The notes under the pieces were generated by a model, which was not told the DNA's origin, made no database searches, and saw only the letters and a program-made list of their open reading frames with translations. The translations under genes and the position numbers were made by a program. From IMG/VR virus record IMGVR_UViG_3300029915_000005: a stretch of 64,000 nt of DNA; one strand, written 5' to 3'. Positions 10,904 through 46,552 of this stretch are shown one piece after another. This DNA comes from a virus. The number at the start of each line of letters is the position of its first letter. Position 1 is the first letter of the stretch.

Positions 10904-10911
10904 ATACATAT

Positions 10912-13254: not shown

Positions 13255-13848
13255 ATGAAAATATTTGAAGTAATTGATCCTTTAAATTTCAACTCGATAA
13301 AAGAATTTATAGAAATCAATTGCTCAGATATACTTAAATTTTATAAAGAAACTGGAAATATGCTATATCGAGGCATAAAAAACAATAAACCATATTTAAT
13401 TAACAATCCTGTTAAATATAGAACACCAGTAGATACTCCTGTGAACATTCAATATATAGTAGATGTGAAACTTGAGGCAGCAGGATTTACAGCATTAAGA
13501 TCAAACAGCATTTTTTGTTTTGGAAATTCTTATAATCCCAAATTTTATGGTAGAGTATATATGGTTTTTCCTTTCAATGGTTTTTCATATACTTGGTCTT
13601 TAAAAATTAAAGATTTATATGACGACTATGCTAGTGTATCTATGTTTTCAGGTAAAGCAATTAAAGATATGGAAAATATGTCTCCAAAAGAAGTCGTTGA
13701 TATTTTTGATTTTGTTTCAACAAATTTAAAAACTGCTTGTAATACTCCCAATGAAATACTAATTCATGGAAAATGTTTATTAGTAAACGCTGAATTATAT
13801 GAAAATAAAATAAATAAATTTATCTCTTTTTATTATTATCCCAATTAA
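13255..13848 (+). CDS. ADP-ribosyltransferase-like protein, paralogue 1 (leader MKIFEV)
   Basis: LYRG...GFTALRSNSIFC...YGRVYMVFP...NEILIHG; clearly paralogous to 29514, 30629, 31225, 32021. Fold is inferred from motifs. Confidence 0.5.
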   Translation: MKIFEVIDPLNFNSIKEFIEINCSDILKFYKETGNMLYRGIKNNKPYLINNPVKYRTPVDTPVNIQYIVDVKLEAAGFTALRSNSIFCFGNSYNPKFYGRVYMVFPFNGFSYTWSLKIKDLYDDYASVSMFSGKAIKDMENMSPKEVVDIFDFVSTNLKTACNTPNEILIHGKCLLVNAELYENKINKFISFYYYPN

Positions 13849-16240: not shown

Positions 16241-16291
16241 TTCTTTTTTTGAAGAACCAAAGGTTTATTCTTTTTTTGTATAAATACTTAT

Positions 16292-23902: not shown

Positions 23903-24118
23903 ATGAATATTTGCGCTGTCAGTAATAAAATTCCATTTACTTATCTTGTAACTCAAAAATCAACAGGAAAAAGATATTATGAATCAAAATATGGAAAAAA
24001 TTGTCATCCATCTGATATTGGAACAAAATATTTTACTTCGAGTAAAGAAATTAAAAAATTTAATATTTCTCCCAAAACTGTTAGAAATATAGTTAAAATA
24101 AAAACTTGGAAATATTGA
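23903..24118 (+). pseudogene. Internally deleted GIY-YIG endonuclease remnant
   Basis: PFTYLV...KRYYES...CHPSD...YFTSSK N-terminal part joined directly to an HTH-like tail (FNISPKTVRNIVKIKTWK); only 71 aa. Confidence 0.55.
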
Positions 24119-24129
24119 TAAATATCAAT

Positions 24130-24654
24130 ATGAGACTATATGAAATTAAAGAAGATCAAAAAATATACATTGATTTGGATGGAGTGCTTGTAGATTGTGT
24201 AAAAGCTGCCTCTGATTTCAATAATATTGATGTTCAAGATTTTATAGATTCTGGATATCATAATAAGTATTGGAAAAATTTTGTGGATCATGCAGATATT
24301 AAAAAAGAATTTACTAATATGGCTTGGGAAAGCAATGGTAAAAAAATATATCATTGGTTTACTCAGAGAGACATTCCAGTTACCATCTTAACTAGACCAG
24401 TTGGAGAACCACATACTAATGATTGTATTGCAGGTAAAAAATTATGGTTGAAAAAACATAATTTGGATATTCCTGTTATTTTTGAGAGAGATAAAGAAAA
24501 ATATGCTGGTGATGGTAATATTCTTATAGATGATGATAGTAGAAATATTGATGCGTGGAATAAAGCTGGTGGGGTGGGAATTCTCTATAAAAATGACAAA
24601 TATGAAGATGTAATTAAGAAATTGAATAAATTATTACAAAGCCACCCAATTTGA
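24130..24654 (+). CDS. 5'(3')-deoxyribonucleotidase-like HAD hydrolase (leader MRLYEI)
   Basis: IYIDLDGVLVD, ILT, GKKLWL, ILIDD...W..AGG; start set at the ATG 5 nt after TAAATA. Confidence 0.75.
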   Translation: MRLYEIKEDQKIYIDLDGVLVDCVKAASDFNNIDVQDFIDSGYHNKYWKNFVDHADIKKEFTNMAWESNGKKIYHWFTQRDIPVTILTRPVGEPHTNDCIAGKKLWLKKHNLDIPVIFERDKEKYAGDGNILIDDDSRNIDAWNKAGGVGILYKNDKYEDVIKKLNKLLQSHPI

Positions 24655-24669
24655 GTGGTTTTTCTTTTT
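24638..24669 (+). terminator. Putative rho-independent terminator
   Basis: aaagccacccaatttgagtggttttt hairpin plus T run. Confidence 0.5.
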
Positions 24670-24691
24670 GAATTAAATTATAAATATAAGT

Positions 24692-25210
24692 ATGAAGATT
24701 AATGAAGTCATTATCGATAATGAAAATGGATTAGGAGGAGTTTCATATAATCAAGAAATTGATTATCTTGGTCTTAGAGTGCTAATGTATCCATCCACAT
24801 TTTTAAGCCTAGCATATTATAGAAGTCGAAACGATTTAGGAAATGTTGACTATATAAAAAATTATATTAAAAATGGTGGGACTATTGGCGCTCCATTCCT
24901 TCAAATAAGTATTCCTAATAGATGGGAGAATGATGATTATTCTATTCCATCCATAGTTATTGGTCATGAAGGAAGAAATAGAATGATGGCACTCGATGAA
25001 CTTCAAGATGAAGGATTAGAACCTGATGTGCCAGTTGAAACTCATTTATTGTTTTATAAATATAGAGCCAGGCATTTAAAACCAGAATGGATAATACAAT
25101 TAAATAAACAACTTTATAATCAAAATACAGAATATGAATATCATTCTGGAGAAGTGGCTTATACAGATAGCCCTATAACCAAAGGGCCATTGTTTAAGGT
25201 TGTAAATTAG
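24692..25210 (+). CDS. ParB/Srx-like domain protein (leader MKINEV)
   Basis: APFLQI...VIGHEGRNRMMAL resembles the ParB/Srx (D/E)GxxR motif; TAAATA 5 nt upstream. Confidence 0.45.
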   Translation: MKINEVIIDNENGLGGVSYNQEIDYLGLRVLMYPSTFLSLAYYRSRNDLGNVDYIKNYIKNGGTIGAPFLQISIPNRWENDDYSIPSIVIGHEGRNRMMALDELQDEGLEPDVPVETHLLFYKYRARHLKPEWIIQLNKQLYNQNTEYEYHSGEVAYTDSPITKGPLFKVVN

Positions 25211-26100
25211 ATATAAAAGATTTTACTAAATTATCAATATTTTCTTTATTCCAATATGGAATTATTAATAATGGAATATTATTAATATTACAATAATTAT
25301 ATTTTATATAATCATTTTTCTTAGTAGATTCAAAATATTTTTGAAAAATAGGTTCATAATGTTGTTTTCCTTGGTATTCAATTAATCCTATAATTTTATT
25401 ATTTTTAATAATCCCTATATCAAAAGGTAATGGATATTTATTTTTGCATAATGTAATTCTTATTTGTTCATCAAATTCTATTGGTAATGATTCCAACGTT
25501 TTTATAATTTTTAATTCTCCAGAACTTCTTTTACATTTTGGACATTTTCTTCCCATTAAGTGTTTATTTGGGCTTTGCCAAAAAGAGCCATGCTTCTTAC
25601 ATATTATTTCAACTTTTTGGCGTGAAGTTAAATAATTTACATTATCATAAATAAATTCATTTTTGTGTATGATAATAGCTTTTGTTATAAATTCTTTTGT
25701 ATTGCTTGTTTTTGTTTTAGAAATACTGTTAAATCCACATTGTGGACAACCAATTTTTTGTAAATGCACGCCGGGGGCTTGTTTAAAAATTCCATGTTCC
25801 TTACATTTTATATCCATTTTCTTTTTGGCGTTGTAATAAGTTTTAGAAATATAAGAATATTTAAAATTATGAATAATATTTGCAGAGTTAACAAATTCTG
25901 TAAATGTTCTATTAAATCCACAGCATTTTGGGCAACCATTTCCTGATAAATGTGCATGAGAAGATTGCAAAAATTCTCCATGAATTGGGCAAATAATTAT
26001 TAATTTGTTTTTTGCATTAATGTATATAGATTTACTATAATTATATTTAAAATTATGAATTTGATTTTGATATAAAATATGCAGTAGTATAAATAGTCAT
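25194..26100 (-). pseudogene. Zn-repeat (CxxHG...CxxC) + Vsr/PD-(D/E)XK-type endonuclease, frameshifted near its 5' end
   Basis: GGAGG RBS and ATG at 26100 (MTIYTTAYFISKSNS*); the homologous frame resumes at about 26060 (IHNFKYNYSKSIY...CPIHGEFLQ) and runs into the track ORF 25194..25970; C-terminal LPFD...IEYQGKQHY. Confidence 0.7.
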
Positions 26101-26170
26101 AGCTGAATGACCTCCAGTGGTCTTTAGAGCGAGTAGATGTCGAAATCATCGTGACTCGCATTTGTATTTA
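26088..26170 (+). ncRNA. Two-hairpin structured element, copy 1 (candidate antisense sRNA)
   Basis: TATAAATA, CTGAATGACC-loop-GGTCTTTAG, GCGAGT-A-GATG-loop-CATC-GTG-ACTCGC, opposing TATTTA; same layout at 46540 and 59093. Confidence 0.6.
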
Positions 26171-26193
26171 TATGAAAAAGAATAAATATAAGT

Positions 26194-29100
26194 ATGAGAT
26201 TACAAAATTTGTTTGAAGAAAAAATAAAACAAACAACTGCAACAATTTTTAGCGGTGGGTTTCACCCATTCCTTCCACAACATTTATATTGCTGGGAATA
26301 TTTGATTTCAAAATTTCCAAATGCACATCATTATATAGCTTCCACTAATAATATAAGTGAGCGACCATTTTCATTTAAGCAAAAACAATTTTTAGCAGTG
26401 CAAGCTGGCATACCTAAAAATGGATTTGTACAAGTAACAAGTCCTTATAAAGCATTGGAGATAACTAGTAAATATGATTCAAACAATACTATTGTTATAT
26501 TTGGTTTAAGTGAAAAAGATGCAGAAAGACTCGGACCAACGATAAAGAAAGATGGGACCCTGTCATTTTTACTACCATATCCTGGGCCTTCTACTCCACT
26601 AGAAACTTTGAATAAACATGCATATTATGTAATTATTCCTGTCCATAAGTATAGAGTTTTGGGACAAGAGATAACCTCTGCTTCTCAAATAAGAAAGATG
26701 TATACTTCTTCTAATGAAAGCGATAGATATACTATTATTCGAGAATTATATCCAAATTCTATGAAAGTTGGAGAGATTAAAAAAATATTTGATCAAGTTT
26801 TGCTTGCTCCAATAAATGAAGATATATATGACGTGATTTATAGACCAAAAAACGTTTATAATATAGAAGCGAATGAATATCCAGAATTTATGTTAGATGG
26901 GGATGTTCAACGTATGATATATGATTTGCACCAACAGGAAGAGATTGATGCTGGCTCTGATATTTGGGATAGAATGGATAGTGTCTGGTATAAGTTACAA
27001 AATGTTTCTATAAAAAAATTAGATAACATAAATGATTTAGATGAAGATGATGACCAATATTCTGATGAAATAACTCCTTTTCCTCCAATAGTATTAACAA
27101 AAAGAGGGGAAATATTAGATGGATTTCATAGGACTATTTCTGCTAAAATTCGTGGTGATAAAACAATTAGAGCATATGTTCCTTGCAAAAAACCAATTAA
27201 TGAATCTAAAGCTGGATTAGAATATAAATTAAAACTTGGAAACAAAAAATCTGTAATAGATTCAAGTGGCTGGCTATTTCCAGATAAAACTTTTGTTCCA
27301 CTTGTTCCAGGAACAACTCACGAAACAATGGCTACAAGATTGGGATATAATGGTTATGAAGGAATATATAAAATTGGATGTGTAAGAGTTTCCCGTCCAA
27401 TTTATGCTCCGGGTAAAATTTATATAGAAACAATACAAAAATTGAGTGATAGTACTTATAAGCTAATTATGAATATTATTCATAGAATAAAAGTGGATGT
27501 TAAAATAGATGTTACTGTTGGATCAGGTAATGGATATTTTCAACATTATAAATGGGATTTCAAAGATAGACAATTGCATAAAACAAATTTTTATGAGTCA
27601 GTTATAAATGAAGAACCTGATTTTAATTATACAAAATTTAATAATAGAGATGAAGAGCTTTCAAGATTAAAATTTGATTATTCAGTAATACCCAGTAATA
27701 ATGACGGAATTGGTGGATTTTGGATAATTGTAAATAACTCCTCTGGTGTTAGTGTGGCAGATATTGATTTGGTGGAAGTTAATTCAAAAACATTAGTAAT
27801 TTCTTTTATTAGAATTAATTTAAAATGGAAAGGTACTGGACTTGGGCAAATTCTGTATGACAAAGCGATTAAAAAAGCCAAACAATTAGGATATAAATAT
27901 TTTCGATCAGATACTGATAGATCAGCGGCTGCTGAAAAAGCGTGGAAAAGATTGGCAGCAAGATATACAGTTAAGTACAAAGAAGGCAAAGAATTTAATA
28001 AAGGGTATTATGAAATTGATCTAAGTAAAGTTCAATTAAAAGAATCATTTGATTATTCCTATAGAGCTAAATTATTTCAACTTAGACCACAAATGATTAA
28101 AGCTGCACAAAAAATATATGATAAATGGGAAGGAGGAGAAGTTGGTTTGTGTGATAGTATTGCAGAGTCAATTTCTGATTGTGTATTAAAAAATATAAAG
28201 AATATTGATTCATACGTGGTTGGCCATAAAAATCCAAAATTGCATGAACTTCATTTTTGGGTAAGAGTAGATTTTAATAATGGAGAAAAATATTATGATA
28301 TTGACTTACCATTTGGAAAATATGAAAGATATGATAATAAAAAACATTATTTTGTAAAAATACCAAATGTAAAATTTCAATTAAATGATTTATTAATATA
28401 TCAATCATCTTTAAATTATAATAAAGCTCCTTGGGAAATAAGAAATAGTTATACTCCACATAAATCAGATAGTTATTTTATCAGCGAATCTATTGCACAA
28501 GAAGTTATAAAAGTTGGTAAAAGCAATGATGAAATTATAAAATTAATCAAAGAAGCTACAAAATATAAATTATATGTTCCTACATTTACAGCGCAAAAAG
28601 AATTTGGTTGGATATTACAAACAGGAAATAAAGGTAAAATAAGTAAAATGGCTATGATGTATGTTAACAACATGCCTGTCGCTTGGATCATTTATTGGAA
28701 ACATGGAAGTTTTATGTCTGACTCTAATCCAAGAACAGAAAATGACAAATATTGGAGATTTACTAAAAAAGAATTTAGAAATATAGGTTATTATCATAAA
28801 TTAAAAAAAGCTTTATGGAATATAATTAATGAGGCACCAGATTTTGGCTACAAAAGTTTTAATGATAGAGATGAAGATATAAGCAAATTAAAGTGGGAAA
28901 TTGATAAAAGACCATTTAAAGATTGGAATAGTGATGAGGAACACCTAGGAATAATAATTAGGGCAAGAAATCCAGAAACTAATGAAGTAGAAGGTTTTAT
29001 AACTTCTAATGAGATAACCAAGAAAACATTAAAAATTTCAAGAAGTCAATTAACATCTAATCATAATTGGCAATCGACTGGTCTTGGACAAATGTTATAT

Positions 29101-29211
29101 GATAAACTTATTAACGTTGCAAAAGAATTAGGTTTTGATTATGTAGACAGTGATTATATTTTATCTGTGGATGCTAGAAAAGCTCTGAAAGATATCCAGT
29201 GCAAAAATTAA
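26194..29211 (+). CDS. Polyprotein 1: HIGH-type nucleotidyltransferase-like, ParB/Srx-like, unknown, GNAT, papain/transglutaminase-like, GNAT-like, GNAT
   Basis: FSGGFHPFLPQH...SASQIR; PPIVL...LDGFHR; WKGTGLGQILY; GLCD...HFWV...YDID; FRNIG; WQSTGLGQMLY; domains separated by INE/LKE/ISE; TAAATA 5 nt upstream. Confidence 0.65.
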   Translation: MRLQNLFEEKIKQTTATIFSGGFHPFLPQHLYCWEYLISKFPNAHHYIASTNNISERPFSFKQKQFLAVQAGIPKNGFVQVTSPYKALEITSKYDSNNTIVIFGLSEKDAERLGPTIKKDGTLSFLLPYPGPSTPLETLNKHAYYVIIPVHKYRVLGQEITSASQIRKMYTSSNESDRYTIIRELYPNSMKVGEIKKIFDQVLLAPINEDIYDVIYRPKNVYNIEANEYPEFMLDGDVQRMIYDLHQQEEIDAGSDIWDRMDSVWYKLQNVSIKKLDNINDLDEDDDQYSDEITPFPPIVLTKRGEILDGFHRTISAKIRGDKTIRAYVPCKKPINESKAGLEYKLKLGNKKSVIDSSGWLFPDKTFVPLVPGTTHETMATRLGYNGYEGIYKIGCVRVSRPIYAPGKIYIETIQKLSDSTYKLIMNIIHRIKVDVKIDVTVGSGNGYFQHYKWDFKDRQLHKTNFYESVINEEPDFNYTKFNNRDEELSRLKFDYSVIPSNNDGIGGFWIIVNNSSGVSVADIDLVEVNSKTLVISFIRINLKWKGTGLGQILYDKAIKKAKQLGYKYFRSDTDRSAAAEKAWKRLAARYTVKYKEGKEFNKGYYEIDLSKVQLKESFDYSYRAKLFQLRPQMIKAAQKIYDKWEGGEVGLCDSIAESISDCVLKNIKNIDSYVVGHKNPKLHELHFWVRVDFNNGEKYYDIDLPFGKYERYDNKKHYFVKIPNVKFQLNDLLIYQSSLNYNKAPWEIRNSYTPHKSDSYFISESIAQEVIKVGKSNDEIIKLIKEATKYKLYVPTFTAQKEFGWILQTGNKGKISKMAMMYVNNMPVAWIIYWKHGSFMSDSNPRTENDKYWRFTKKEFRNIGYYHKLKKALWNIINEAPDFGYKSFNDRDEDISKLKWEIDKRPFKDWNSDEEHLGIIIRARNPETNEVEGFITSNEITKKTLKISRSQLTSNHNWQSTGLGQMLYDKLINVAKELGFDYVDSDYILSVDARKALKDIQCKN

Positions 29212-29254
29212 AGCATGATGGAGAAAATTATTTAAGTATTGAATTGAGTAAAAT

Positions 29255-29524
29255 ATGAGAATAAGCGAAGTTAACAATTCGACGTTAGATATAACTAAAT
29301 TGAAGTGGAAAGGAGAACTTCAAAAGAAATCGTATCAATTGAGAGTTAGCGGAGAAGGATATGGCGAAGTTGGTATGTTTTTAACAACCAATAATAAAAA
29401 TGATTGGAAAATTTTTTATGTATTTGTAGATAATGATTGGAAGAATACAAATTTGAAACATATGATGTATGTAAAAATGAAAGAAATTGCTAAAAAATAC
29501 GGAGCAAAATTACATGCTGCTTAA
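29255..29524 (+). CDS. Short GNAT-like protein (leader MRISEV)
   Basis: DITKLKW...VFVDNDWKNTNL...MY...AKKYG matches the GNAT domains of the upstream polyprotein. Confidence 0.45.
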   Translation: MRISEVNNSTLDITKLKWKGELQKKSYQLRVSGEGYGEVGMFLTTNNKNDWKIFYVFVDNDWKNTNLKHMMYVKMKEIAKKYGAKLHAA

Positions 29525-30191
29525 TGAATTTGACAAATCGAAAGGTTTTTCAGCTTATGTAAAAGAAGATGAGACTAAAATTTTAATATTCTTAAATAAG
29601 CATTGCAGTGAAATTATGTCTTTGTATAGAGAATATGGAAAAGTATTGTATCGCGGCATCACACGATATTTTGGCAGTAATATATATAATTTCAAAGATG
29701 GAGATGTATTTTTCGGAAAATCCCCATCTGATAGACACCCAATAGATATACCATCTTCAGTACAGAAGCAAATAGATAGTAAATTACAAAAAAGTGGGTT
29801 TGAAGCATTAAGATCAAACAGCATTTTTTGTTGTTCTTCTAAACTATCAGCGCAAAAATATGGTGACCTACATATTATATTTCCATTGGATGGATTTTCA
29901 TATACATGGTGTAATACTGCTATTGATTTATATGACGAATATGTAAGAGCTTTGACTCCCACTCCTTGGGGTGAGACACCATCACAAGAAGATATTAATA
30001 AAGCAGAAATATTTAAAGAAAATTTATATAAGCTTTCTTCAACTGATTTTATTAGAGATTATGGTTTCAAGAATACAGATTTAACTCATGCAATTATTAG
30101 AAATAATGAAATTTTAATTCATGGTGACTATATCGCAATGAGCGAGAAATTAGGAAATAAAATAATATTTAGTAATAGGAGAAGTATATAA
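29514..30191 (+). CDS. ADP-ribosyltransferase-like paralogue 2 (leader MLLNEF)
   Basis: GGAG RBS at 29501; LYRG...LRSNSIFCCSS...AQKYG...NEILIHG. Confidence 0.5.
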   Translation: MLLNEFDKSKGFSAYVKEDETKILIFLNKHCSEIMSLYREYGKVLYRGITRYFGSNIYNFKDGDVFFGKSPSDRHPIDIPSSVQKQIDSKLQKSGFEALRSNSIFCCSSKLSAQKYGDLHIIFPLDGFSYTWCNTAIDLYDEYVRALTPTPWGETPSQEDINKAEIFKENLYKLSSTDFIRDYGFKNTDLTHAIIRNNEILIHGDYIAMSEKLGNKIIFSNRRSI

Positions 30192-30628
30192 TGAATAACT
30201 TAGAAATGAGTCTGAAAGTGGCGACTGCAACTGTTTTTCATTTAGGAATTAAATTTCATATTGGGCATTTTAATATAACTGGTCCAAGATTTTTCGAGTT
30301 ACATTTATTGCTTGAAAAAATATATCAAAATCTTGAAAGTAATTTTGACAGTATTGGTGAGCAACTTAGAGCATTGGATATATTTGTTCCATCGTCCGTA
30401 AATGAATTACTTAGTTTATCAGTTATAGAAGATTTTCAAGAAGTATTGCCAGCAAATGAAATGATTCATGAATTATTGATTGACAATGATAAATTATTGG
30501 AAATGCTAACTGAAGTTGATAAATTGGCAGTAAATCATATTGGTCTTCAAAATTATATTGAAGGATTAGCAGATCAACAAGAAAAGTTTGGTTGGTTTTT
30601 AAGAGCAACATTACAAGCAGTAAAATAA
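30191..30628 (+). CDS. dps: Dps-like ferritin family protein
   Basis: HFNITGPRFFELHLLLEKIY...DSIGEQLRAL...EKFGWFL Dps signature. Confidence 0.85.
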   Translation: MNNLEMSLKVATATVFHLGIKFHIGHFNITGPRFFELHLLLEKIYQNLESNFDSIGEQLRALDIFVPSSVNELLSLSVIEDFQEVLPANEMIHELLIDNDKLLEMLTEVDKLAVNHIGLQNYIEGLADQQEKFGWFLRATLQAVK

Positions 30629-31228
30629 ATGAAAATATGTGAACTACATATCGATGCTTCTGCTTTTGAACAGCAAGGATTAATTCTTAAAAAAGCTTTG
30701 GAAGAAGTGTCAGTATTATGCTCAGAATTTTTAAAATTTTATGAAGAAGCTGGACCAATGTATCATGGATTTCAATCAGCACCAAGTAATATTTTTGTAG
30801 GGGAACCACATACAGATAGAAAACCATTATCGCTTACTTATAAAGAACAATATGAGATAGATAAAAAATTATCATTGGCAGGATTTCATCAATTGCGTGG
30901 CAATAGTTTGTTCTGTATAGGAAATATTACAACAGCATCTGAGTATGGTGCAGTTTATCAAATTTTTCCAAAGAATGGTTTTAGATATACTTGGAGTGAT
31001 TTTTGCGATTTAGTTACAGATATAAGATATACAGAAATGATGTATGATCTTCATTCTTTAAGTCCCAATGATTTTGCTGATAAGTATGAATTTAGGGAAA
31101 ATATGGGATTATCATTGGCTTTACAACAAGGAAAAGAAATATATCTTGGTGGAGAATTTATTGCAATATCAGAATTAATGGTAACTAGACATTCAAATAC
31201 ATATTTACAGTGGACAAAAACTTTATGA
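30629..31228 (+). CDS. ADP-ribosyltransferase-like paralogue 3 (leader MKICEL)
   Basis: MYHG...LRGNSLFC...ASEYGAVYQIFP...KEIYLGG. Confidence 0.5.
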   Translation: MKICELHIDASAFEQQGLILKKALEEVSVLCSEFLKFYEEAGPMYHGFQSAPSNIFVGEPHTDRKPLSLTYKEQYEIDKKLSLAGFHQLRGNSLFCIGNITTASEYGAVYQIFPKNGFRYTWSDFCDLVTDIRYTEMMYDLHSLSPNDFADKYEFRENMGLSLALQQGKEIYLGGEFIAISELMVTRHSNTYLQWTKTL

Positions 31229-32040
31229 AAATAAACGAAATCAGTAAAAAAATAAAGATTGGAATGCATCCCTCAAATGAGCCAGAAGATAAAATTGTTC
31301 AGTTCATTAAGAAAAACTGTTCTCAAATTGTAAAAGTTTATGAAAACAGTCATAGTAATTTTTTATTCAGTGGGAAAGAGTCTTATAGTGATGTATTTTT
31401 TGGCAAACCTATTAATAATAGAGCACCACTGGGAACAGACCGCAAGATCAATAATAAATTAAATAGTGTTCTAAGACAAGTTGGATTTAAAGCACGACGA
31501 GATAATAGTATTTTTACTACTTCTATGGAAGTTACAGCGCAGGAATATGGCAAAGTATATATAATTTTTCCATTGAATGGTTTTGACTATTCGTGGTGTG
31601 CTCTTGCTGAAGATTTAACTATGGAGTTTGATATTGGCGAAAAAAAATATAGTGTCTCCAGAGAGAATAATGAATTTTACAATGATTTGATTACATTGCT
31701 GCCACAAGAGTTTGTTCAAAAATATCATTTTAAAAATAATGAAGGATTTGAATATGCATTGACAAATGGATTTGAAATTTTGATACACGGAAGTTATGTT
31801 GCAATTAGCGAAGAATCTTCTTTATTAGAAATAATATTACCATTTTATAGATTTAATGAAGATAACGATTTAGAAGAATCAGCATCGTGCGGATCAACTA
31901 GTTCTGGATCGATTGCAACTGTCAACGGAACAAACACTCCTCCATCTGGGCAATTTTTTGGTGGAGATCCTAATAGTTCAGTATATGGAAAAATTAAGAG
32001 AAATCGTAGGAGAAGAAAGAATGCTACTCCGAGAGTTTGA
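31225..32040 (+). CDS. ADP-ribosyltransferase-like paralogue 4 (leader MKINEI) with C-terminal Ser/Gly-rich basic tail
   Basis: LFSG...RRDNSIFTTS...AQEYG...FEILIHG, then LEE-SASCGSTSSGSIA...RNRRRRK. Confidence 0.5.
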   Translation: MKINEISKKIKIGMHPSNEPEDKIVQFIKKNCSQIVKVYENSHSNFLFSGKESYSDVFFGKPINNRAPLGTDRKINNKLNSVLRQVGFKARRDNSIFTTSMEVTAQEYGKVYIIFPLNGFDYSWCALAEDLTMEFDIGEKKYSVSRENNEFYNDLITLLPQEFVQKYHFKNNEGFEYALTNGFEILIHGSYVAISEESSLLEIILPFYRFNEDNDLEESASCGSTSSGSIATVNGTNTPPSGQFFGGDPNSSVYGKIKRNRRRRKNATPRV

Positions 32041-32908
32041 TTTGGATATGTCAAAACTAAGTTCAGGAGATGTTAAAGAAATCAATGCTAATGTTGAATC
32101 TTTATCTCTATGGATAAAAGATCATTGTTCAGAATTTTTGAAAATGAAAGGAGCAAATGATCTCGTTCGAGGTGTTAGAGAAAACTCACCAAGTATTTTT
32201 ATGGGATATCCAAGAAAAAATAGAAGAAGTATTGAAGGAGAAATATCTACTGAGCTTACTAAAATAGTAGACAAATATATGCAAATGACTGGTTTTACTG
32301 CTCTTCGAGGAAATAGTTTATTTTGTAATAGTGATCCTGAAATGGCTGAACCATGGGGTGAATTATATGTCATATTCCCTATAAATGGATTTACTTTTGC
32401 GTATAGTAAACGACATACTTGTTGTTCAGGGGCAAGTTATATATTTCCAACAGAAGCTATTGACGAAAATTTACGCACATATGTAGACCAAATTTCTGAT
32501 TTTTGGAATCGTAAAAAATACGATGTCCATGGATATTCAGAAAATATAAAAAAATTTTTAAAATATTGGTATACTCTTAATGAGTTTTATTCCAAAAAAG
32601 TAAATTATTTTAATATTACTACAGTAATAAGAAATATTATTAAGACGTACAATTCTTTTACTAACGACGAAAAGGTTATGTTATCTGGTTCAGTAGTTGA
32701 TCGTGCAATTATTGATCTTGGAAGAGAATTGAAACAGTTAGGAACAGATGAAATAATTGCTAAAAAATTCATAGTAAACAATAAATTGACCAATAAAAAT
32801 TTGAAATGGGCTTTAGAAAATAGCTATGATGTGTGGATTCACGGAGCATATATTGCCATTGACAGAGAATTATATATACATAATTTTGATTTATTTGAAA
32901 AACTATAA
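32021..32908 (+). CDS. ADP-ribosyltransferase-like paralogue 5 (leader MLLREF)
   Basis: AGGAG RBS; LVRG...LRGNSLFCNS...WGELYVIFP...YDVWIHG, with a ~100-aa insertion. Confidence 0.5.
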   Translation: MLLREFDLDMSKLSSGDVKEINANVESLSLWIKDHCSEFLKMKGANDLVRGVRENSPSIFMGYPRKNRRSIEGEISTELTKIVDKYMQMTGFTALRGNSLFCNSDPEMAEPWGELYVIFPINGFTFAYSKRHTCCSGASYIFPTEAIDENLRTYVDQISDFWNRKKYDVHGYSENIKKFLKYWYTLNEFYSKKVNYFNITTVIRNIIKTYNSFTNDEKVMLSGSVVDRAIIDLGRELKQLGTDEIIAKKFIVNNKLTNKNLKWALENSYDVWIHGAYIAIDRELYIHNFDLFEKL

Positions 32909-32941
32909 ATACTAAAGAGAATAAATTATTGGAGTAACTAT

Positions 32942-35900
32942 ATGAAAAAGAAATCATTATTGGGATCAACAAAACCATACAGAAATCCAAAGTGGCTTGG
33001 CCCACAAGATAAAGTTGACAATCTTGGCCCAATTCTTGGAGCAAAACCAAAAAAATCAAAAGTTTTGAGCACAAAATTCATGGGATGCAGCAAAAATATG
33101 ACTAATAAAAATATCATTGCGGAAAATAATAAATATTCATCAAATGAAAAAGCACAACTGGCTGCTGTTCGACGAGATGGTTATGCAATTGAATGGATTG
33201 ACAATCCAAGCGAAGCTGTGCAAATGGCTGCTGTTAAACAAAATGGTTATGCAATTGGATACATCAGCAAGCCAAGCGAAGCTGTGCAAATGGCTGCTAT
33301 TCAACGAAATTATCGTGCAATTGAATACATCGACAAACCAAGCGAAGCTGTGCAAATGGCTGCTGTTCGACAAGATGGTTGGGCAATTGAATACATCGAC
33401 AATCCAAGCGAAGCTGTGCAACTTGCTGCTGTTCAACAAAATGGTCGTGCAATTCAATTCATAAAAAAGCCAACAATTAATGTCAAATTAATGGCTAAAT
33501 CAAAAGTTTTGAGCACGAAATTTCAAGGTTGTTCCATAGATCGCTCCAATAGCAATATTATTTCTGAATATAAAGATGATTATAATCCATCCAATGAAGA
33601 ATGGCTTAAAAATGAAATTGATTACGCCTATGAAATTTTTAATAATGAGGAATTTCCAAGAGTGGACAGAGAAGAAGCTCATCGAAGAATAAAGCTTTTA
33701 AATGCTGAAGCAAAAAAGAAAGGATATATTGATAAGTGGAATAAAGAAGCGCAAGAAGAAGCAGAAAAGACTCATATTAAACCAGAACTTTTAGATGTTC
33801 TTGATGATGTACGAGGCTATATTCATCACGGGAAAACTATAAACAAAGCTGATAGTAATATGTTACATAGTATGGGAATTAGTGAAGCTGTAAACAAATA
33901 TCCAATTTCTGCCAGAATAAATCCAAGATCATTAAAAAAATTATCTTTGTTGGGGCCAGAAGATAAACTTGGATTTGGAGCAGGATTAATAACAATCACT
34001 AATAAAGTATATATTGCAGCATGGCATTCAGAAATTCGTGCAAAACGTGGTTATGATATTTGTAGATTAAGTGAAGGAGCAATTAGAATTAGACAGGGTG
34101 GTTGGGATTGCGGAGATAATACAATAATTGAGTTTGGAAAATATGATGATGACACAATTTATAGACTTAAACAAATAATTCCATATGTTACTTCTCCAAC
34201 AAATAAATTTAAATTAGAGTGTGATGCTCGTGGAATAAATAATGATCATTTATATGTGACTGGAAATAAAGAATATATTATGGCAGAATTGGAAGAATGG
34301 TTAACTCCAAGACAAAAAGTTCCACTTCCAGGAAGTGTTATGGCATTTCATATGCAAGAATCAAAAGAAACTCCAAAATTAACATATAGAGAGTTTGCAA
34401 ACGCAAGCAAAGCAAAGAATAAGAAGTGCCCAACTTGTGAAAGCGAATTTAAGAATGTTCACTCAGCGAATCAAAAATATTGTTCCTCGGATTGTGAAGT
34501 GAAAGGAGAGACAGTTAAAAAATTACAAGAAGCGTTTGATAAATCAATAATAAGAAAAGCTGGATTTATTCCTTATTATTTTGATAACTTTGGAAAACTC
34601 AGAATGATGTTTGTTATGAGCAGTGATCCAACTTATGGCGGAAGCAAGTGGATGATAGCTAAAGGGCATATCGATGGAAAAGAAACAGATTTACAAGCTG
34701 CTTTACGAGAAGGAAACGAAGAGTGTGGGGTTAAGCAGTCAAATATTAAATTTATTAAACTTGGGTGGAAAGGTTTAATAAAAGGTTACACAGAATCTTC
34801 TGAAATGACAATTTATATTGGAGAAGTTAAAGACCCAGTTGATTTTGATAAACCAGGTAACGAAATAAAAGCTGTTAAATGGATAACTCCAGAAGAATTT
34901 AATTCGATTGGAAGAAATAGTCAAAAATTTATTGTTGAAGCATGTGTAAACAAAATTGGAGATAAAATGCGATTTTCTGAAATAAAAGAATCAAGAAAAT
35001 TTACAGTTTATAAAGATGGTGGTTTTTATGGCCCAAAATATGAATATGGATACATAGGAGTTCAAGACGAAGATGGGCATGATATGACTTATATTGGAAA
35101 GAAAAGTGTTCCCAATATGAATATACAGCAAGCAATATCAGCCCTTAAACAACAATTTCCAGGATGTGAAGTGAAAATTAAACTATCAAAAATATCTGAA
35201 GGTATGCTCAATGGACTAACTGTTATGTCTCTCGATCAATTTTTGGATGGCGAAAATCCAGAAGAAACTGAATTGGAAGACGAGATGTTGGGAGAAGCTG
35301 GAGAATTTGGTCTTGGTTCTAAATATCGAAACGCAAGTCATAAAGAAATGCAGGATTATCTTGATAGAACAGTATTCAAGAAGAAAAATAAACTTGATCC
35401 ATACACTATGCCATATATTCACCCAAGCAATGTAAAAAAGAATGCAGATGGTTCAGTTCCTATTATTGATGAAAATGGCGATAAGTATGATCTTGATGCT
35501 TTAAGAGATGCTATTACTAAAAGACCTAGTGGCTTACTTAAACAGAATGAGAAGATGAAACACAGTAATGGTACTGCCACAGTTTATTATAATGTTGGTT
35601 TGCCAGCATTAAAAGGATTGTCAGTTAATGAAGAAACAGGAGAATTTGTAGTTGTTGATACTTGCCCTGGTGCAGGTATTTGCAAAAATTATTGTTTCGC
35701 AATGAAAGGAAGCTATATTATGTTTCCTGGAGTTAGCATGAAGTCTGCGCAAACATTAAATTATTTATTGAATGATCCAGAAGGATTTAAAGCAGAATTA
35801 ATTGGTGAAATTTCAAAAGCAATCGCTAAATGGGATAATTTTACAGATAAAGATTTTAATAAAGGAGATGTTGAAGTTTCAATAAGGTGGCATGATTCAG

Positions 35901-36403
35901 GAGACTTCTTCAGTCCTGAATATATGGATATGGCTTGGGATGTTGCTAGAGAATTCCCAAATAATTTGTTTTATGCTTACACCAAAATAGCTGATGTTGC
36001 AAATTCAGAGGACAAGCCAGATAATTTTGTAATTAATTTTAGTGCTGGTGCATCTTCAACGCAAAGCAATTTAGTTAATATAAGTGCAGTTAAACATAGC
36101 CAAGTAGTGCCCAAAGATTTATTCTATGATTTAATTGCACGCAAAGGTATTAAGCTTATTAAAAATGCAGCAGGAGCCACACAATTTAGAGGTCCAGAAG
36201 AATGGAATGAATTAAAAGATAGATTGGCTGAAAAATATGATATAGATGTTGATACTATTTTAAGTTATGATGAATTTGTGGAAAAGAAGATGAATAAAAC
36301 GCTCGGCACTAAACCAAAATGGAATGTTACAGTTCTTCCTGGAGAAGGAGACGTTTCAGCAACAGATCCTACAGTAAAAGGTACATACTTAATGTTTCAC
36401 TAA
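32942..36403 (+). CDS. Polyprotein 2: DUF4116-like repeats, unknown domains, Zn ribbon, Nudix hydrolase, Gp88-like Cys-cluster domain
   Basis: AAVxxNGxAIxxI repeats; CPTC...CSSDC; Nudix box KGHIDGKETDLQAALREGNEECG; TCPGAGICKNYCFA...IRWHDSGDF...FYAYTK; TATAAATA at 32904. Confidence 0.65.
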   Translation: MKKKSLLGSTKPYRNPKWLGPQDKVDNLGPILGAKPKKSKVLSTKFMGCSKNMTNKNIIAENNKYSSNEKAQLAAVRRDGYAIEWIDNPSEAVQMAAVKQNGYAIGYISKPSEAVQMAAIQRNYRAIEYIDKPSEAVQMAAVRQDGWAIEYIDNPSEAVQLAAVQQNGRAIQFIKKPTINVKLMAKSKVLSTKFQGCSIDRSNSNIISEYKDDYNPSNEEWLKNEIDYAYEIFNNEEFPRVDREEAHRRIKLLNAEAKKKGYIDKWNKEAQEEAEKTHIKPELLDVLDDVRGYIHHGKTINKADSNMLHSMGISEAVNKYPISARINPRSLKKLSLLGPEDKLGFGAGLITITNKVYIAAWHSEIRAKRGYDICRLSEGAIRIRQGGWDCGDNTIIEFGKYDDDTIYRLKQIIPYVTSPTNKFKLECDARGINNDHLYVTGNKEYIMAELEEWLTPRQKVPLPGSVMAFHMQESKETPKLTYREFANASKAKNKKCPTCESEFKNVHSANQKYCSSDCEVKGETVKKLQEAFDKSIIRKAGFIPYYFDNFGKLRMMFVMSSDPTYGGSKWMIAKGHIDGKETDLQAALREGNEECGVKQSNIKFIKLGWKGLIKGYTESSEMTIYIGEVKDPVDFDKPGNEIKAVKWITPEEFNSIGRNSQKFIVEACVNKIGDKMRFSEIKESRKFTVYKDGGFYGPKYEYGYIGVQDEDGHDMTYIGKKSVPNMNIQQAISALKQQFPGCEVKIKLSKISEGMLNGLTVMSLDQFLDGENPEETELEDEMLGEAGEFGLGSKYRNASHKEMQDYLDRTVFKKKNKLDPYTMPYIHPSNVKKNADGSVPIIDENGDKYDLDALRDAITKRPSGLLKQNEKMKHSNGTATVYYNVGLPALKGLSVNEETGEFVVVDTCPGAGICKNYCFAMKGSYIMFPGVSMKSAQTLNYLLNDPEGFKAELIGEISKAIAKWDNFTDKDFNKGDVEVSIRWHDSGDFFSPEYMDMAWDVAREFPNNLFYAYTKIADVANSEDKPDNFVINFSAGASSTQSNLVNISAVKHSQVVPKDLFYDLIARKGIKLIKNAAGATQFRGPEEWNELKDRLAEKYDIDVDTILSYDEFVEKKMNKTLGTKPKWNVTVLPGEGDVSATDPTVKGTYLMFH

Positions 36404-36411
36404 GGAAAAAT

Positions 36412-37025
36412 ATGAGACTAGATGAATATTCAAAACCAAGAGTTCCTGTAAAAGTTTTTAAAGTAGTTGATGATGAAGTTCGTACTTCATCATCTTCATT
36501 GAATATGGACCAAAAATTAGAAAAACTTGGTTGGGAATTTTTTAACGGAGGGTCTTTTGCAGCAGTATATACAAATCCTAAAAAACCATATATTCTAAAA
36601 ATCAATAAACAACCGGATAAAGCTTATGCTTATTATGTGTCAATAATAAGAAAATTGCATAATAAACATTTTCCAAAAATAAGTGATTTGAAATTTATAG
36701 AAGTTAATGGTGGTCGATATTACATATATCTTATTGAGAAATTACATAAGGCAAAATATGGAGTAGCAATAGCTAGTAGACTAGATTTTATTATGAATAA
36801 TTATGAAATTCCTCTGAAAAAATAGAGCAAGATTATTATAGATTATATGATACAAAAGCAGGATTTGAATATTTTGAAAAACATCTTGATTTATTTAAAG
36901 CTGCACAAATTATTGGAAAAAATAAAGAAACAAGTAATGTGCCAGGATTATTTTTTGATATGCATTCTGGAAATATTATGCAGAGAAAAGACGGAACAAT
37001 TGTTATAACTGATCCATACTTCTAA
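36412..37025 (+). pseudogene. T7 gp0.7-like protein kinase, paralogue A (leader MRLDEY), split by a -1 frameshift
   Basis: GGSFAAVY...YILKIN...FPKI...YLIEKL stops at TAG 36823-36825; the -1 frame from 36822 continues to DMHSGNIMQRKDGTIVITDPYF*. Confidence 0.75.
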
Positions 37026-37033
37026 GGATAACT

Positions 37034-37624
37034 ATGAATTTAAATGAATTATACAAACCGAAAATATCTAAAGATATTGATAATGAAATAAATTATCATT
37101 TCAATTATGGCGCTGGAAATACTCAGCAACTAAGAAATCGTCTTAAAAAATTTGGATGGATATATTTAGATGAAGGAGTTTATAGTTCAGTTTGGGGAAA
37201 TGTTAAAAAATCTTATATTCTTAAAATAAATAAAGTTCCTGATAGAGCATTCGATCATTATGTTAATATAATTAAGAAAAGTAAAAATCCTCATTTTCCA
37301 AAAATAAGTGATATGAGAGAAATAGCTATTGGACCTAAAATTTATTGTGCTTATTTAATTGAAAAATTATTTAAAATTCCTGGCCATTTTGTTGGTGATA
37401 ATTACTCAACTTTTTTCAATACAATTATTAATGCGGATCCAAAATATTCAATTTCTAAACTGTTTAATAACCATATTCCTACCATATTTAAAAAACAACC
37501 AAAACTAGTTGATGCATTATGCATAGTTGGTTCTGAACACAATAACTATTTTATTGATATGCATTCTGGAAATATTATGCAAAGAAAAGATGGAACAATT
37601 GTTATAACTGATCCTTATGCATAA
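37034..37624 (+). CDS. T7 gp0.7-like protein kinase, paralogue B (leader MNLNEL)
   Basis: EGVYSSVW, YILKIN, FPKI, YLIEKL, DMHSGNIM, ITDP. Confidence 0.75.
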   Translation: MNLNELYKPKISKDIDNEINYHFNYGAGNTQQLRNRLKKFGWIYLDEGVYSSVWGNVKKSYILKINKVPDRAFDHYVNIIKKSKNPHFPKISDMREIAIGPKIYCAYLIEKLFKIPGHFVGDNYSTFFNTIINADPKYSISKLFNNHIPTIFKKQPKLVDALCIVGSEHNNYFIDMHSGNIMQRKDGTIVITDPYA

Positions 37625-37673
37625 TTTTTATTAACTCTTTAATATCTTTTAACTTTCCATATAATAATCGATA

Positions 37674-37835
37674 TCAATTTTTGGTTCTATTTCGTTTATT
37701 CTCATTATTCCACCACAATGAATGATCACTCGTGTCTGGTTTACCAATGTACTCTAAATTTATTTCAACTTCTCCAGACGGTCTTTCTGGATATTCTCTA
37801 ATGAGATTCCATTTTGGAATTTCATCGATTTTCAT
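37674..37835 (-). CDS. Short leader-bearing ORF, 53 aa (MKIDEIPKW...)
   Basis: Start overlaps the end of the upstream minus-strand gene and has the same MKIDEI leader. Confidence 0.4.
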   Translation of the reverse strand: MKIDEIPKWNLIREYPERPSGEVEINLEYIGKPDTSDHSLWWNNENKRNRTKN

Positions 37836-38628
37836 TTCTTATTTTCTCCAGCCAATCCAGATAATTCATCATAGGATTTCGTATATACCATGCCAATGTT
37901 TTATAATCTCTAAATTTCGTTTTAAATAAATCCTCTTTCAAGCTTGGAAATGTATTGTTCACTTCTATATTCATTCCTGGAATTTTATGCTTTCTATAAT
38001 ACACCAATTCTTTGGCAGCTTTTCCAACATATTTTTTAAGAAAAGTTCCAATATTAATTAAATAATATTCATCACAATCAAAAATTAATTCATTTTTAGT
38101 AAAATTCTTGGGAAGTCCTTCTCTATATGTAGATGCCATAGATGCTGGAATTCTTCTATCATCTGTCATATGCCCCATATTTCCTGTAATTATCATTCCA
38201 TATTTGTCTGCATCTTCTCCAGCGACAGTATTACCACCAATATCAACCACTACTGGACTCCAAACAACTTTATAATTCTCTGTAGGAACAAAAATTCTAG
38301 CTTGGCCATGAAACAAATATAATTCGCTTGGAGTGATCATAGTACAAAAAGTTGGATTTTTTATGTCCAATTTTTTCATTATATCTGTAAGAGAACTTGC
38401 AAACATTCCTTTTGCGTTATATTCAAAATTTTTATTTTCATGATTGGTAACTTTGATAATAGGAGTTTCTGGTGTTGTAGCATTAAATGCTCTATATATT
38501 AAAGGATAATTTCCCATTCTATCGCAAAAACCTGCAACAATATTTGCACGGGCTCTAATATGCTGAATTTCAGCAGCATGTATAACAGCTTCTTCTAATT
38601 TCTCTTTTGTTATTTCATCGATTTTCAT
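37822..38628 (-). CDS. Divergent ADP-ribosyltransferase-like protein (leader MKIDEI); minus strand, mislabelled + in the track
   Basis: cat at 38626-38628 and tca at 37822-37824 show the minus strand; LIYRA...TFCT...HG..RIFVP...VVWS...NELIF parallels the ART-like family. Confidence 0.45.
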   Translation of the reverse strand: MKIDEITKEKLEEAVIHAAEIQHIRARANIVAGFCDRMGNYPLIYRAFNATTPETPIIKVTNHENKNFEYNAKGMFASSLTDIMKKLDIKNPTFCTMITPSELYLFHGQARIFVPTENYKVVWSPVVVDIGGNTVAGEDADKYGMIITGNMGHMTDDRRIPASMASTYREGLPKNFTKNELIFDCDEYYLINIGTFLKKYVGKAAKELVYYRKHKIPGMNIEVNNTFPSLKEDLFKTKFRDYKTLAWYIRNPMMNYLDWLEKIRNENR

Positions 38629-38640
38629 TATATTTTCCCA

Positions 38641-39231
38641 TCAGCTTGCATAAGGATCAGTTATAACAATTGTTCCGTCTTTTCTCTGCATAATATTGCC
38701 GCCATGCATGTCATTGGAAATATATGGATTTTTGATATTGTGTTTAAATTTTCCAATAATTCTGAGTGCTGTAACTAATTCTGGATTTTGTTTTAAATAA
38801 TCAAGTTGCGTATGAGATGTATTAAAAAATGTTAGTGATGAATATGGACAATCTATTATTTCACTAAAAACATTAGCTAAATGTTTCATTTCAGAACGTA
38901 CATCATCTAATTTCTCAATAAGATATATGTAATATCGACCACCATTAACTTCTATAAATTTCAAATCACTTATTTTTGGAAAATGTTTATTGTTATATTT
39001 CTTTATTAAAGATACATATTGTGCATACGCAGTATCTTGTCTATCATTAACTTTTAACACATAAGATTTTTTTGGATTTGAATATACTGTACTATAATAA
39101 CCAGCCCCTAGAAGAGTCCAACCCAATTTTTTTAATTTGCCTTCTATGGTATATTTATCAGTACTGCGATCAAACACAATTTTAGAAAATTTGGCTGGTA
39201 TTCTCGTTTTTGAATATTCGTCTAGTTTCAT
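38641..39231 (-). CDS. T7 gp0.7-like protein kinase, paralogue A' (leader MKLDEY)
   Basis: GAGYYSTVY, YVLKVN, FPKI, YLIEKL, DMHGGNIM, ITDP. Confidence 0.75.
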   Translation of the reverse strand: MKLDEYSKTRIPAKFSKIVFDRSTDKYTIEGKLKKLGWTLLGAGYYSTVYSNPKKSYVLKVNDRQDTAYAQYVSLIKKYNNKHFPKISDLKFIEVNGGRYYIYLIEKLDDVRSEMKHLANVFSEIIDCPYSSLTFFNTSHTQLDYLKQNPELVTALRIIGKFKHNIKNPYISNDMHGGNIMQRKDGTIVITDPYAS

Positions 39232-39841
39232 TATAACCCCCAATGTATGGATCAGTTATTACAATTGTTCCATCTTTTCTTTGCATAAAATTTTCGTCAT
39301 GCAAATCAATCCTAAAAAATGGTTTAGATTCATAGCTAACTATACGCAATGCTTTAATTAATTTTGGTTGTTTTTTGAATATTTCAGGAATTGCTCCATA
39401 CTCTTCAATTAGTGATTCTAAAGGTTTTTCTTCCATATTAAGATTAATTACAAAATTGAACATAGATGCATAATCTTCAGCAGTAGCTCTATTTGGAAAT
39501 TCCTCTAATTTTTCAATTAAATATGCATAATAACTTCTTCCTGTAATAAATATTTGTCTTCTATCACTAATTTTTGGAAAATGTGGATTTCTACTTCCTT
39601 TAATAACAGAAACATAATGATCAAATCCAGGATCTGGTATTTTATTTATTTTAAGGATATATGATTTTTTGGGATTACTCCAAACCGAACTATAAACACC
39701 GGATCCTTCCAATTTCCAACCAAATTTTTCAAGTTGATTTTTTAAATATGGAATATTAAGAGGATTATTGAAAAGATGATTCGTTATAGCATAAGTTGCG
39801 CTCTTAGATATTTTCGGTTTGTAGAATTCATTTATAAGCAT
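39182..39841 (-). CDS. T7 gp0.7-like protein kinase, paralogue B' (leader MLINEF)
   Basis: GSGVYSSVW, YILKIN, DLHDENFM, ITDP; minus-strand TAAATA (39847-39852) 5 nt before the ATG. Confidence 0.75.
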   Translation of the reverse strand: MLINEFYKPKISKSATYAITNHLFNNPLNIPYLKNQLEKFGWKLEGSGVYSSVWSNPKKSYILKINKIPDPGFDHYVSVIKGSRNPHFPKISDRRQIFITGRSYYAYLIEKLEEFPNRATAEDYASMFNFVINLNMEEKPLESLIEEYGAIPEIFKKQPKLIKALRIVSYESKPFFRIDLHDENFMQRKDGTIVITDPYIGGYNETRRIFKNENTSQIF

Positions 39842-39924
39842 ATAAGTATTTATTGCTTTAATAAATATTATTGCTATTAAACACGACTCATGATACAATT
39901 AATTATAAACAAAGGAGCATTAAT

Positions 39925-46443: not shown

Positions 46444-46552
46444 AAAATTTCTTAATACGTTTTTCTATTTTATTTTTATTACAATAAGAAATGATTAATA
46501 TTGGAATTTTATTGGCTCTTTCTATGAAATATTCCGTTGTATAAATAAACAT
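46424..46552 (-). pseudogene. Miniature (42-aa) internally deleted Zn-repeat endonuclease
   Basis: MFIYTTEYFIERANKI joined to PILIISYCNKNKIEKRIKKFF, i.e. the N- and C-termini of the 25194/40201 family. Confidence 0.65.

Follow-up and report, generated by a model that had tools for sequence, protein, structure and literature searches.

A short N-terminal peptide on enzymes of a T4-related jumbo phage as a candidate capsid-targeting and prohead-protease tag

Packaged proteins of large phages and the locus under study

In bacteriophage T4 the propeptide of Alt and the capsid targeting sequences (CTS) of the internal proteins IPI-III are removed by the prohead protease gp21 (Mullaney and Black, 1996; PMC5694885). 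Alt is an ADP-ribosyltransferase (ART) that is packaged and ejected, and its six-residue peptide MELITE is removed at ITE-6 (PMC5694885; PMC9958956), while the internal proteins have propeptides of 10-20 residues (PMC5694885). Here we describe an island of genes at positions 24130-39841 of a 64-kb stretch of viral DNA (IMG/VR record IMGVR_UViG_3300029915_000005), the whole of which is called the window below. The window has a G+C content of 30% and belongs to an uncultured, T4-related jumbo phage. Most genes of the island begin with a hexapeptide of the form M-[KR]-[IL]-x-E-[ILFV], which is probably (we would put it at about 0.6) a portable tag of the T4 type that marks enzymes for transport into the capsid and for the prohead protease.

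The likeness to T4 lies in short N-terminal peptides on non-essential cargo (in T4 including an ADP-ribosyltransferase), in cargo apparently encoded by late genes, in the (I/L)-x-E end seen in Alt (MELITE) and gp24 (MAKINE), and in a gp21-type protease gene (Peptidase_S77) in all the relatives examined. In the T4 internal proteins the CTS is MKTYQEFIAE. The window tag differs from it in sequence, being closer to the Alt and gp24 peptides of the T4 record, and has its Glu at residue 5, or at residue 8 in a variant. It also has far more carriers (at least 14 in the window and 38 sequence clusters in relatives), among them T7-type kinases and a nucleotidase.

In giant phages of the phiKZ type (SPN3US, phiKZ and 201phi2-1) a homologous prohead protease cuts many head-internal proteins after a Glu, and a targeting role is assumed for the propeptides (PMC5694885). 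Unlike the window tag, these phages use an A/S/G-x-E motif and propeptides mostly longer than 100 residues, and their cargo consists mainly of virion RNA polymerase subunits and paralogous inner-body proteins, not of small enzymes. Another comparison is offered by the polyvalent proteins of phages and conjugative elements, which Iyer, Burroughs, Anand, de Souza and Aravind reportedly described in 2017 as effectors delivered with the DNA. The repertoire of the window and of related loci (ART-PolyVal, GNAT, Nudix, JAB and metallopeptidase domains) is similar, whereas here it is mostly distributed over separate small proteins, each with its own tag, and not over the domains of one giant protein; the 1005- and 1153-residue multidomain proteins of the island fit the polyvalent type better.

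Occurrence and conservation of the hexapeptide

Every ATG of the window that opens an open reading frame (ORF) of at least 40 amino acids (aa) was scanned with the pattern M-[KRLN]-[IL]-x-E-[ILVFYM]. The motif was found at 14 starts, all of ORFs of at least 53 aa, belonging to at least seven unrelated groups; 13 lie within 24130-39841 and one at 13255 (plus strand: 13255, 24130, 24692, 29255, 29514, 30629, 31225, 32021, 36412 and 37034; minus strand: 37835, 38628, 39231 and 39841). An earlier note on this DNA, made from the letters alone, had counted 15 carriers; the remaining one, MRINEI at 37705 (-), is an 18-aa stub that overlaps a tagged 53-aa ORF. The start MRLQNLFEE, which the same note had taken for a variant, does open a 1005-aa ORF at 26194. 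Ile or Leu at position 3 and Glu at position 5 are present in every case, as the search defines them, and fit the (I/L)-x-E motif of the T4 protease; in the variant, as in the M-R-W-x-Q-L-x-E starts of Agrobacterium phage Atu_ph07 described below, L-x-E occupies residues 6-8.

The N-terminal enrichment that had been proposed as a check is pronounced, with the motif at 13 of 64 called gene starts and at 1 of 293 internal Met codons (Fisher p 8e-10; p about 2e-20 against the pooled internal-Met rate of four genomes, 0.31%). Nor is it equally common outside the island, where it opens 1 of 47 genes, as compared with 12 of 17 inside (p 2e-8). As claimed, replication and chaperone genes lack it, and it is absent from the ClpB-like, DnaJ, family-B DNA polymerase (PolB), GTP cyclohydrolase I, radical-SAM, exonuclease and baseplate genes of the window. 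All ten tagged-start proteins that were looked up are letter-identical to independent automatic gene calls (JGI, ENA, Logan), so the tagged starts are not the analyst's own choice.

All-against-all BLAST places nine of the 14 tagged ORFs in two paralogue families, A with five and B with four members (Table 1), and leaves the deoxyribonucleotidase at 24130 and four proteins without known family (24692, 29255, 37674(-) and 37822(-)). The earlier note had treated these unrelated or paralogous bodies as independent cases, which the nine are not; with the paralogues collapsed to seven groups the enrichment still stands at p about 5e-10.

To see the motif in a wider setting, 88 related metagenomic loci of IMG/VR (L001-L088) were retrieved through homologues of families A and B. 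A stretch of 12 kb in them has it at as many as nine gene starts, and together they contain 172 unique tagged ORFs of 60-1569 aa in 38 sequence clusters, a census in which the two clusters used for the retrieval are inflated. Outside A and B, the tagged proteins of these loci have ART-PolyVal, NT5C, JAB, metallopeptidase, cytidylyltransferase, GNAT, GP88 and DUF4116 domains. Position 2 is K or R in 80%, although it was left free in the search pattern, and the codons at positions 3 and 6 are diverse. Kinase homologues that are only 24-28% identical, on unrelated contigs, are still tagged (MRLTEL, MKITEI), the one on L013 keeping MRLTEL at 27% identity. Near-complete relatives have the motif on 2-3% of their genes, 7- to 25-fold over internal Met.

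The AlphaFold models of one member of each family reach a predicted local distance difference test score (pLDDT) of 88.5 for family A, with residues 1-11 below 50, and of 88.7 for family B, with a mean of 60 over residues 1-10. Both place the tag in an N-terminal overhang of low confidence ahead of the first helix, and profile matches begin downstream of it. Taken together, the observations on the related loci and on the models argue against an artefact of codon bias or paralogy.

That the motif is nothing more than an N-terminus which a few expanded families of paralogues have inherited, joined by chance resemblances and without a common function, seems to us very improbable. The share of families A and B among the window cases speaks for it, as does the retrieval of most census loci through these same families; on the other side stand the enrichment after collapsing, the 38 sequence clusters and the eight unrelated tagged groups of Atu_ph07, all virion proteins. 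Moreover, pairwise BLAST alignments within family A mostly begin at residues 11-36, behind the tag, yet all five members keep M1, I/L3, E5 and a hydrophobic residue 6.

The upstream sequences bear on another explanation, in which the shared start would be a feature of translation initiation or of the mRNA, such as a need for A/T-rich early codons or for leaderless late mRNAs, with the peptide similarity as a by-product. The earlier note had seen a TAAATA box before the first genes of the tagged units. This holds for the spaced form ATAAATA-N5-ATG, which was counted 10 times in the window where 1.5 would be expected, and not for bare TATAAATA, which is not enriched in this AT-rich DNA (23 against 16 expected). 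Four unit-first genes (24130, 24692, 26194 and 39841(-)) stand directly behind ATAAATA-N5-ATG; other sites are at 10900-10914, 16280-16294, 46541-46555 and 59094-59108. In the geometry of T4 late promoters, a box at this spacing places the transcription start at or next to the ATG. Applied to these boxes, it would yield transcripts from the A of the ATG, that is, leaderless late mRNAs. This geometry at four unit-first genes, the 30% G+C of the genome and AAA as the most frequent second codon are what an mRNA feature would lead one to expect. We nevertheless consider it improbable, since most tagged genes lie inside units behind ordinary GGAG/AGGA ribosome-binding sites, codons 3 and 6 show wide variation without a change of amino-acid class, and the distant kinase homologues on unrelated contigs retain the tag. 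Neighbours in the same AT-rich genome are untagged, including a SegE-like gene at 16292 that itself lies behind ATAAATA-N5-ATG.

Virion proteins of Atu_ph07, prohead proteases and delivery

Atu_ph07 is the only cultured phage with family-A homologues. Its gp53-63 (BLAST E down to 3e-23) form a tandem array within coding sequences (CDS) 31-76 and have a conserved N-terminal tag, M-[KR]-W-x-Q-L-[TN]-E; in gp63 the start reads MRLFQLLE. The layout is like that of the window tag, with a basic residue 2, large hydrophobic residues 3 and 6, and Glu at 8 as in MRLQNLFE. All of gp53-63 are listed in the virion table obtained by electrospray ionization tandem mass spectrometry (ESI-MS/MS), with 3-31 unique peptides each (PMC6102473 Table S5). 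When the whole genome was scanned for tag-like starts and the ORFs were matched to the virion table by molecular weight, such starts were also found on gp43, 199, 381, 407, 408, 482, 483, 548, 561 and 672, all in the virion list (PMC6102473 Table S5). Of the annotated genes of Atu_ph07 that bear such a tag, 18 of 18 are in that list, as compared with 131 of 714 overall (p 2e-14), the tag patterns having been defined after the data were seen; these virion-listed proteins fall into eight unrelated sequence groups (p about 1e-6). Within CDS 31-76, the authors of the Atu_ph07 study pointed out 29 virion proteins that lacked an explanation (Attai et al., 2018, PMC6102473). In the main text of that paper the words 'paralog' and 'prohead' are absent, and no mention of the tag or of the family was found there (PMC6102473). 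A homologue of the T7-type kinase was not found in Atu_ph07 by tblastn.

A prohead protease, the search for which the earlier note had also suggested, is encoded by one Peptidase_S77 (T4 gp21) gene in each of five out of five large relatives and by PA5oct, while that of the window phage would lie outside the window. In Atu_ph07 the gp21 homologue is gp204 (PMC6102473 Table S3), and a homologue of T4 gp23 is present as well. In the capsid proteins of four large relatives and of Atu_ph07, L-x-E directly precedes the mature N-terminus, which is conserved, at the place of LTE|AEIGG in T4 gp23, and the protease, scaffold and capsid proteins of these phages also begin with an early L-x-E. In the T4 record, gp21, gp22, gp24, gp67 and gp68 have (I/L)-x-E at residue 6 or 9, and Alt likewise early.

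Put together by analogy with T4, the following sequence of events can be proposed. Tagged genes would be transcribed late, the first gene of each unit directly behind its ATAAATA box. With their short amphipathic N-terminus, which has a basic residue 2, hydrophobic residues 3 and 6 and an acidic residue 5, their products would attach to the prohead core during its assembly, and a gp21-type protease would probably trim them after the Glu of (I/L)-x-E. The trimmed proteins would then remain in the head, exit with the DNA and act on the host. Core binding, cleavage, head-internal location, ejection and host action are all steps that we infer. The cargo encoded in the window would comprise four kinases of the T7 gp0.7 type (one of them frameshifted), the five family-A paralogues, possibly of ART fold, and the deoxyribonucleotidase, together with a GNAT multidomain protein with the variant tag and several proteins without known family.

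The chief rival is that the tag marks virion or late-assembly proteins and has nothing to do with delivery to the host, serving instead to dock proteins on the tail, the baseplate, a whisker or the chaperone/Clp system, or acting as a regulatory peptide. Virion mass spectrometry cannot separate head-internal proteins from other parts of the particle or from co-purifying complexes; the window has ClpB-like and DnaJ genes at a distance of 5-7 kb upstream of the island, and seven proteins of the Clp family are encoded by Atu_ph07. We regard this rival as unlikely, if still to be taken seriously, because the motif conforms to the (I/L)-x-E rule that holds for the T4 protease family and is similar to the way in which core and cargo proteins of T4 begin, because one would hardly expect kinases, a nucleotidase and ART-type domains among the structural parts of a tail, and because Alt provides the precedent of a packaged ADP-ribosyltransferase.

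Several points weigh against the capsid-targeting tag itself. The Atu_ph07 tag is not identical to that of the window (W at 3, Q or D at 5, Glu at 8), and with Glu at 5 in one and at 8 in the other, a cut after Glu would fall at different sites in homologous proteins. The plain six-residue pattern predicts presence in Atu_ph07 virions poorly, and small Atu_ph07 paralogues with MTIDEF or ME/DL-x-E-L starts went undetected, at 82-104 aa a size that is hard for mass spectrometry. The Atu_ph07 preparation was purified with polyethylene glycol (PEG) and contained ribonucleotide reductase, topoisomerase, ssDNA-binding protein and terminase, so some of the 131 listed proteins are contaminants. In PA5oct, three of six motif-bearing ORFs that were checked carry an ESI-MS/MS note. 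The particle data come from these two phages and not from the window phage, whose head genes lie outside the window, as would its protease gene. A propeptide of five residues would be below any documented T4 length. The post hoc choice of the Atu_ph07 patterns and the inflated A and B clusters of the census are to be added to these points. In sum, the head-address and cleavage tag first proposed for this DNA is supported indirectly by its amino-acid conservation on dozens of unrelated families throughout a phage clade, by its position outside the folded domains, by the family-A homologues and all other tag-bearing proteins of Atu_ph07 in the virion list, and by the protease and capsid L-x-E of the relatives examined. 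A tagged Nudix protein and the counting of nine paralogues as separate cases have had to be given up.

A cut of the tag after Glu5 would leave I, L, F, V or Y at the new N-terminus; three of these, L, F and Y, belong to the residues that ClpS reads in the bacterial N-end rule. Atu_ph07 encodes a ClpS, and its own tag variant would expose no such residue; any connection is speculative. The small paralogues of Atu_ph07 form arrays at 305553-317167 (L170); they begin with MTIDEF or M-[ED]-L-x-E-[LFY], have no basic residue 2, and none of them is in the virion proteome.

A broader proposal can be held more tentatively, at somewhat less than even odds: an address code of 5-8 residues (M, basic, I/L/W, x, E/Q, hydrophobic, with Glu at 5 or 8) may be common to a large, mostly uncultured clade of T4-related jumbo phages and sufficient to send any protein into the head, so that pre-packaged kinases, ART-like enzymes, nucleotidases and acetyltransferases would start the takeover of the host before phage gene expression. 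The mechanism as such is already known from T4; the tag sequence, the clade, the number of carriers, the kinase cargo and the link of the tag to published virion mass spectrometry are new, and a literature search on capsid targeting sequences together with jumbo phages brought up no description of this tag. If the tag acts as suggested, the set of injected proteins could be read from sequence alone across a clade of giant phages, a task that until now called for proteomics on the virions of phages in culture. T7 gp0.7-type kinases, in T7 made only after infection, could then arrive ready-made, and a very short natural tag would be at hand for loading foreign proteins into large capsids. The tag would also give a likely function to the 29 unexplained virion proteins of one Atu_ph07 gene cluster, and the link to this phage makes the idea testable in a culturable system.

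Genes of the island and their surroundings

The coordinates of the island genes, of the outlying family-A gene and of the adjoining boxes are collected in Table 1.

Table 1. Tagged and untagged genes of the island, the outlying family-A gene and late-promoter-like boxes (positions in the window)
Position	Strand	Feature	N-terminus	Basis
13255..13848	+	Family-A paralogue, 197 aa, outside the island	MKIFEV	BLAST; phrog_11975 E 1e-34
24118..24132	+	ATAAATA-N5-ATG box adjoining the 24130 start		pattern scan
24130..24654	+	HAD-type 5'-3' deoxyribonucleotidase, 174 aa	MRLYEI	phrog_2643 E 5.5e-21, match from residue 8
24679..24694	+	TATAAATA-N5-ATG box 5' of 24692		pattern scan
24692..25210	+	Tagged protein without known family, 172 aa	MKINEV	no Pfam/PHROGs match
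25194..25970	-	Untagged ORF, weak treble-clef zinc-finger match (DUF4379)		profile match
26182..26196	+	ATAAATA-N5-ATG box 5' of 26194		pattern scan
26194..29211	+	Multidomain protein with GNAT domain, 1005 aa	MRLQNLFE (variant)	profile match
29255..29524	+	Tagged protein, 89 aa, similar to residues 890-980 of the 1005-aa protein	MRISEV	BLAST
29514..30191	+	Family-A paralogue, 225 aa, AlphaFold-modelled	MLLNEF	BLAST
30191..30628	+	Untagged ferritin/Dps-like protein	MNNLEM	Ferritin E 7.5e-11
30629..31228	+	Family-A paralogue, 199 aa	MKICEL	BLAST
31225..32040	+	Family-A paralogue, 271 aa	MKINEI	BLAST
32021..32908	+	Family-A paralogue, 295 aa; some callers start 12 codons upstream (307 aa)	MLLREF	BLAST
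32942..36403	+	Untagged polyvalent-type protein, 1153 aa, DUF4116 + Nudix + GP88	MKKKSL	profile match
36412..37023	+	T7-type kinase (family B), frameshifted; 137-aa N-terminal ORF	MRLDEY	family-B comparison
37034..37624	+	T7-type protein kinase (family B), 196 aa	MNLNEL	PF27024 (marked faint)
37674..37835	-	Tagged ORF, 53 aa, overlaps 18-aa MRINEI stub at 37705	MKIDEI	ORF scan
37822..38628	-	Tagged protein without known family, 268 aa	MKIDEI	nothing convincing in profile searches
38641..39231	-	T7-type protein kinase (family B), 196 aa	MKLDEY	PF27024 Phage_T7_kinase
39182..39841	-	T7-type protein kinase (family B), 219 aa, AlphaFold-modelled	MLINEF	phrog_15752 E 1.5e-12
39839..39853	-	ATAAATA-N5-ATG box 5' of the minus-strand unit starting at 39841		pattern scan

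Among the enzymes that the earlier note had seen in the tagged cargo, the kinases and the nucleotidase stand. Family B is, by profile, fold and catalytic-loop motifs, a protein kinase of the T7 gp0.7 type. PF27024 is recorded on identical proteins, phrog_15752 is matched, the model has a kinase fold with 114 kinase structure matches at E <= 1e-3, and the sequences keep the G-x-G, invariant Lys, HxGN and DP motifs. The resemblance to T7 gp0.7 thus covers profiles, fold and the HxGN and DP motifs, whereas the T7 product is early and made after infection and the family-B proteins are short (196-219 aa), multi-copy, apparently late, and tagged. In the frameshifted copy at 36412 the catalytic and C-terminal half (..DMHSGNIMQRKDGTIVITDPYF) lies in another frame and ends just before 37034; since the same 137-aa call occurs in four independent JGI samples, the frameshift is not a read error, and the gene is either a pseudogene or subject to programmed frameshifting. 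The protein at 24130 is a HAD-type 5'-3' deoxyribonucleotidase by its profile match and the DxD motif of its first strand: IDLDGVL stands at residues 14-20, so that the tag is N-terminal to the DxDGVL strand, and a Pfam NT5C match falls below the cut-off.

The other enzymes fared less well. Family A matches phrog_11975, to which no function is assigned. Foldseek of its model against the PDB gave no match at E <= 1e-3, and comparison with VIA-align returned weak, ART-rich matches (Arr Z 4.5, diphtheria toxin 3.4, DarT 3.1, PARPs 2-3), with the Arg of the YRG motif not invariant across the members; an ART fold is at most weakly supported, and 'ART-like' is a tentative label. The 1005-aa protein, a carrier of the variant tag, was the sole one in which a GNAT domain was found, and the Nudix domain belongs to the 1153-aa protein, which is untagged. 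Profile searches of Pfam and PHROGs gave no match for the proteins at 24692, 29255 and 37822, and a look-up of the 268-aa MKIDEI protein in the ESM Atlas returned nothing usable (scores 0.78, template modelling (TM) score < 0.4).

Within the 1005-aa protein there are internal P-I-N-E, V-I-N-E, I-I-N-E and F-I-S-E sites, two of which directly precede paralogous units (VINE|EPDFNYTKF and IINE|APDFGYKSF). From their sequence, these sites are compatible with cutting of a polyprotein by the protease that would act on the tag. In the free-standing 89-aa protein at 29255, MRISE stands a few residues ahead of the domain common with the 1005-aa protein. The DUF4379-type ORF interrupts the plus-strand island (window 25194-26161 (-)) between two late-promoter-like boxes; it is probably an inserted or mobile gene of the endonuclease type and not cargo. 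Where the plus- and minus-strand units converge (37649-37835 (-)), the 53-aa MKIDEI ORF and the 18-aa MRINEI stub look like decayed tagged genes.

The window phage is without a close relative in culture, and megablast of the island against cultured phages gave no match; nor did exact matching recover the DNA of the window from IMG/VR or from the metagenome collection. An AAA ATPase of the window shares 40% identity with its counterpart in Pseudomonas phage PA5oct and about 31-39% with those of Atu_ph07-like phages. Window proteins recur in several samples of JGI, ENA and Logan, where the contigs reach 161,839 bp. The island is surrounded by genes for a ClpB-like ATPase, DnaJ, a SegE-type endonuclease, a family-B DNA polymerase, GTP cyclohydrolase I, a radical-SAM protein, a 5'-3' exonuclease, an Acb1 anti-CBASS protein, methyltransferases, a MoxR/VWA pair and T4-type baseplate proteins, none of which is tagged. 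The Acb1-family anti-CBASS phosphodiesterase, at 51867-52361 (Pfam E 9.5e-21), starts with MKSFSDF, which is not the tag.

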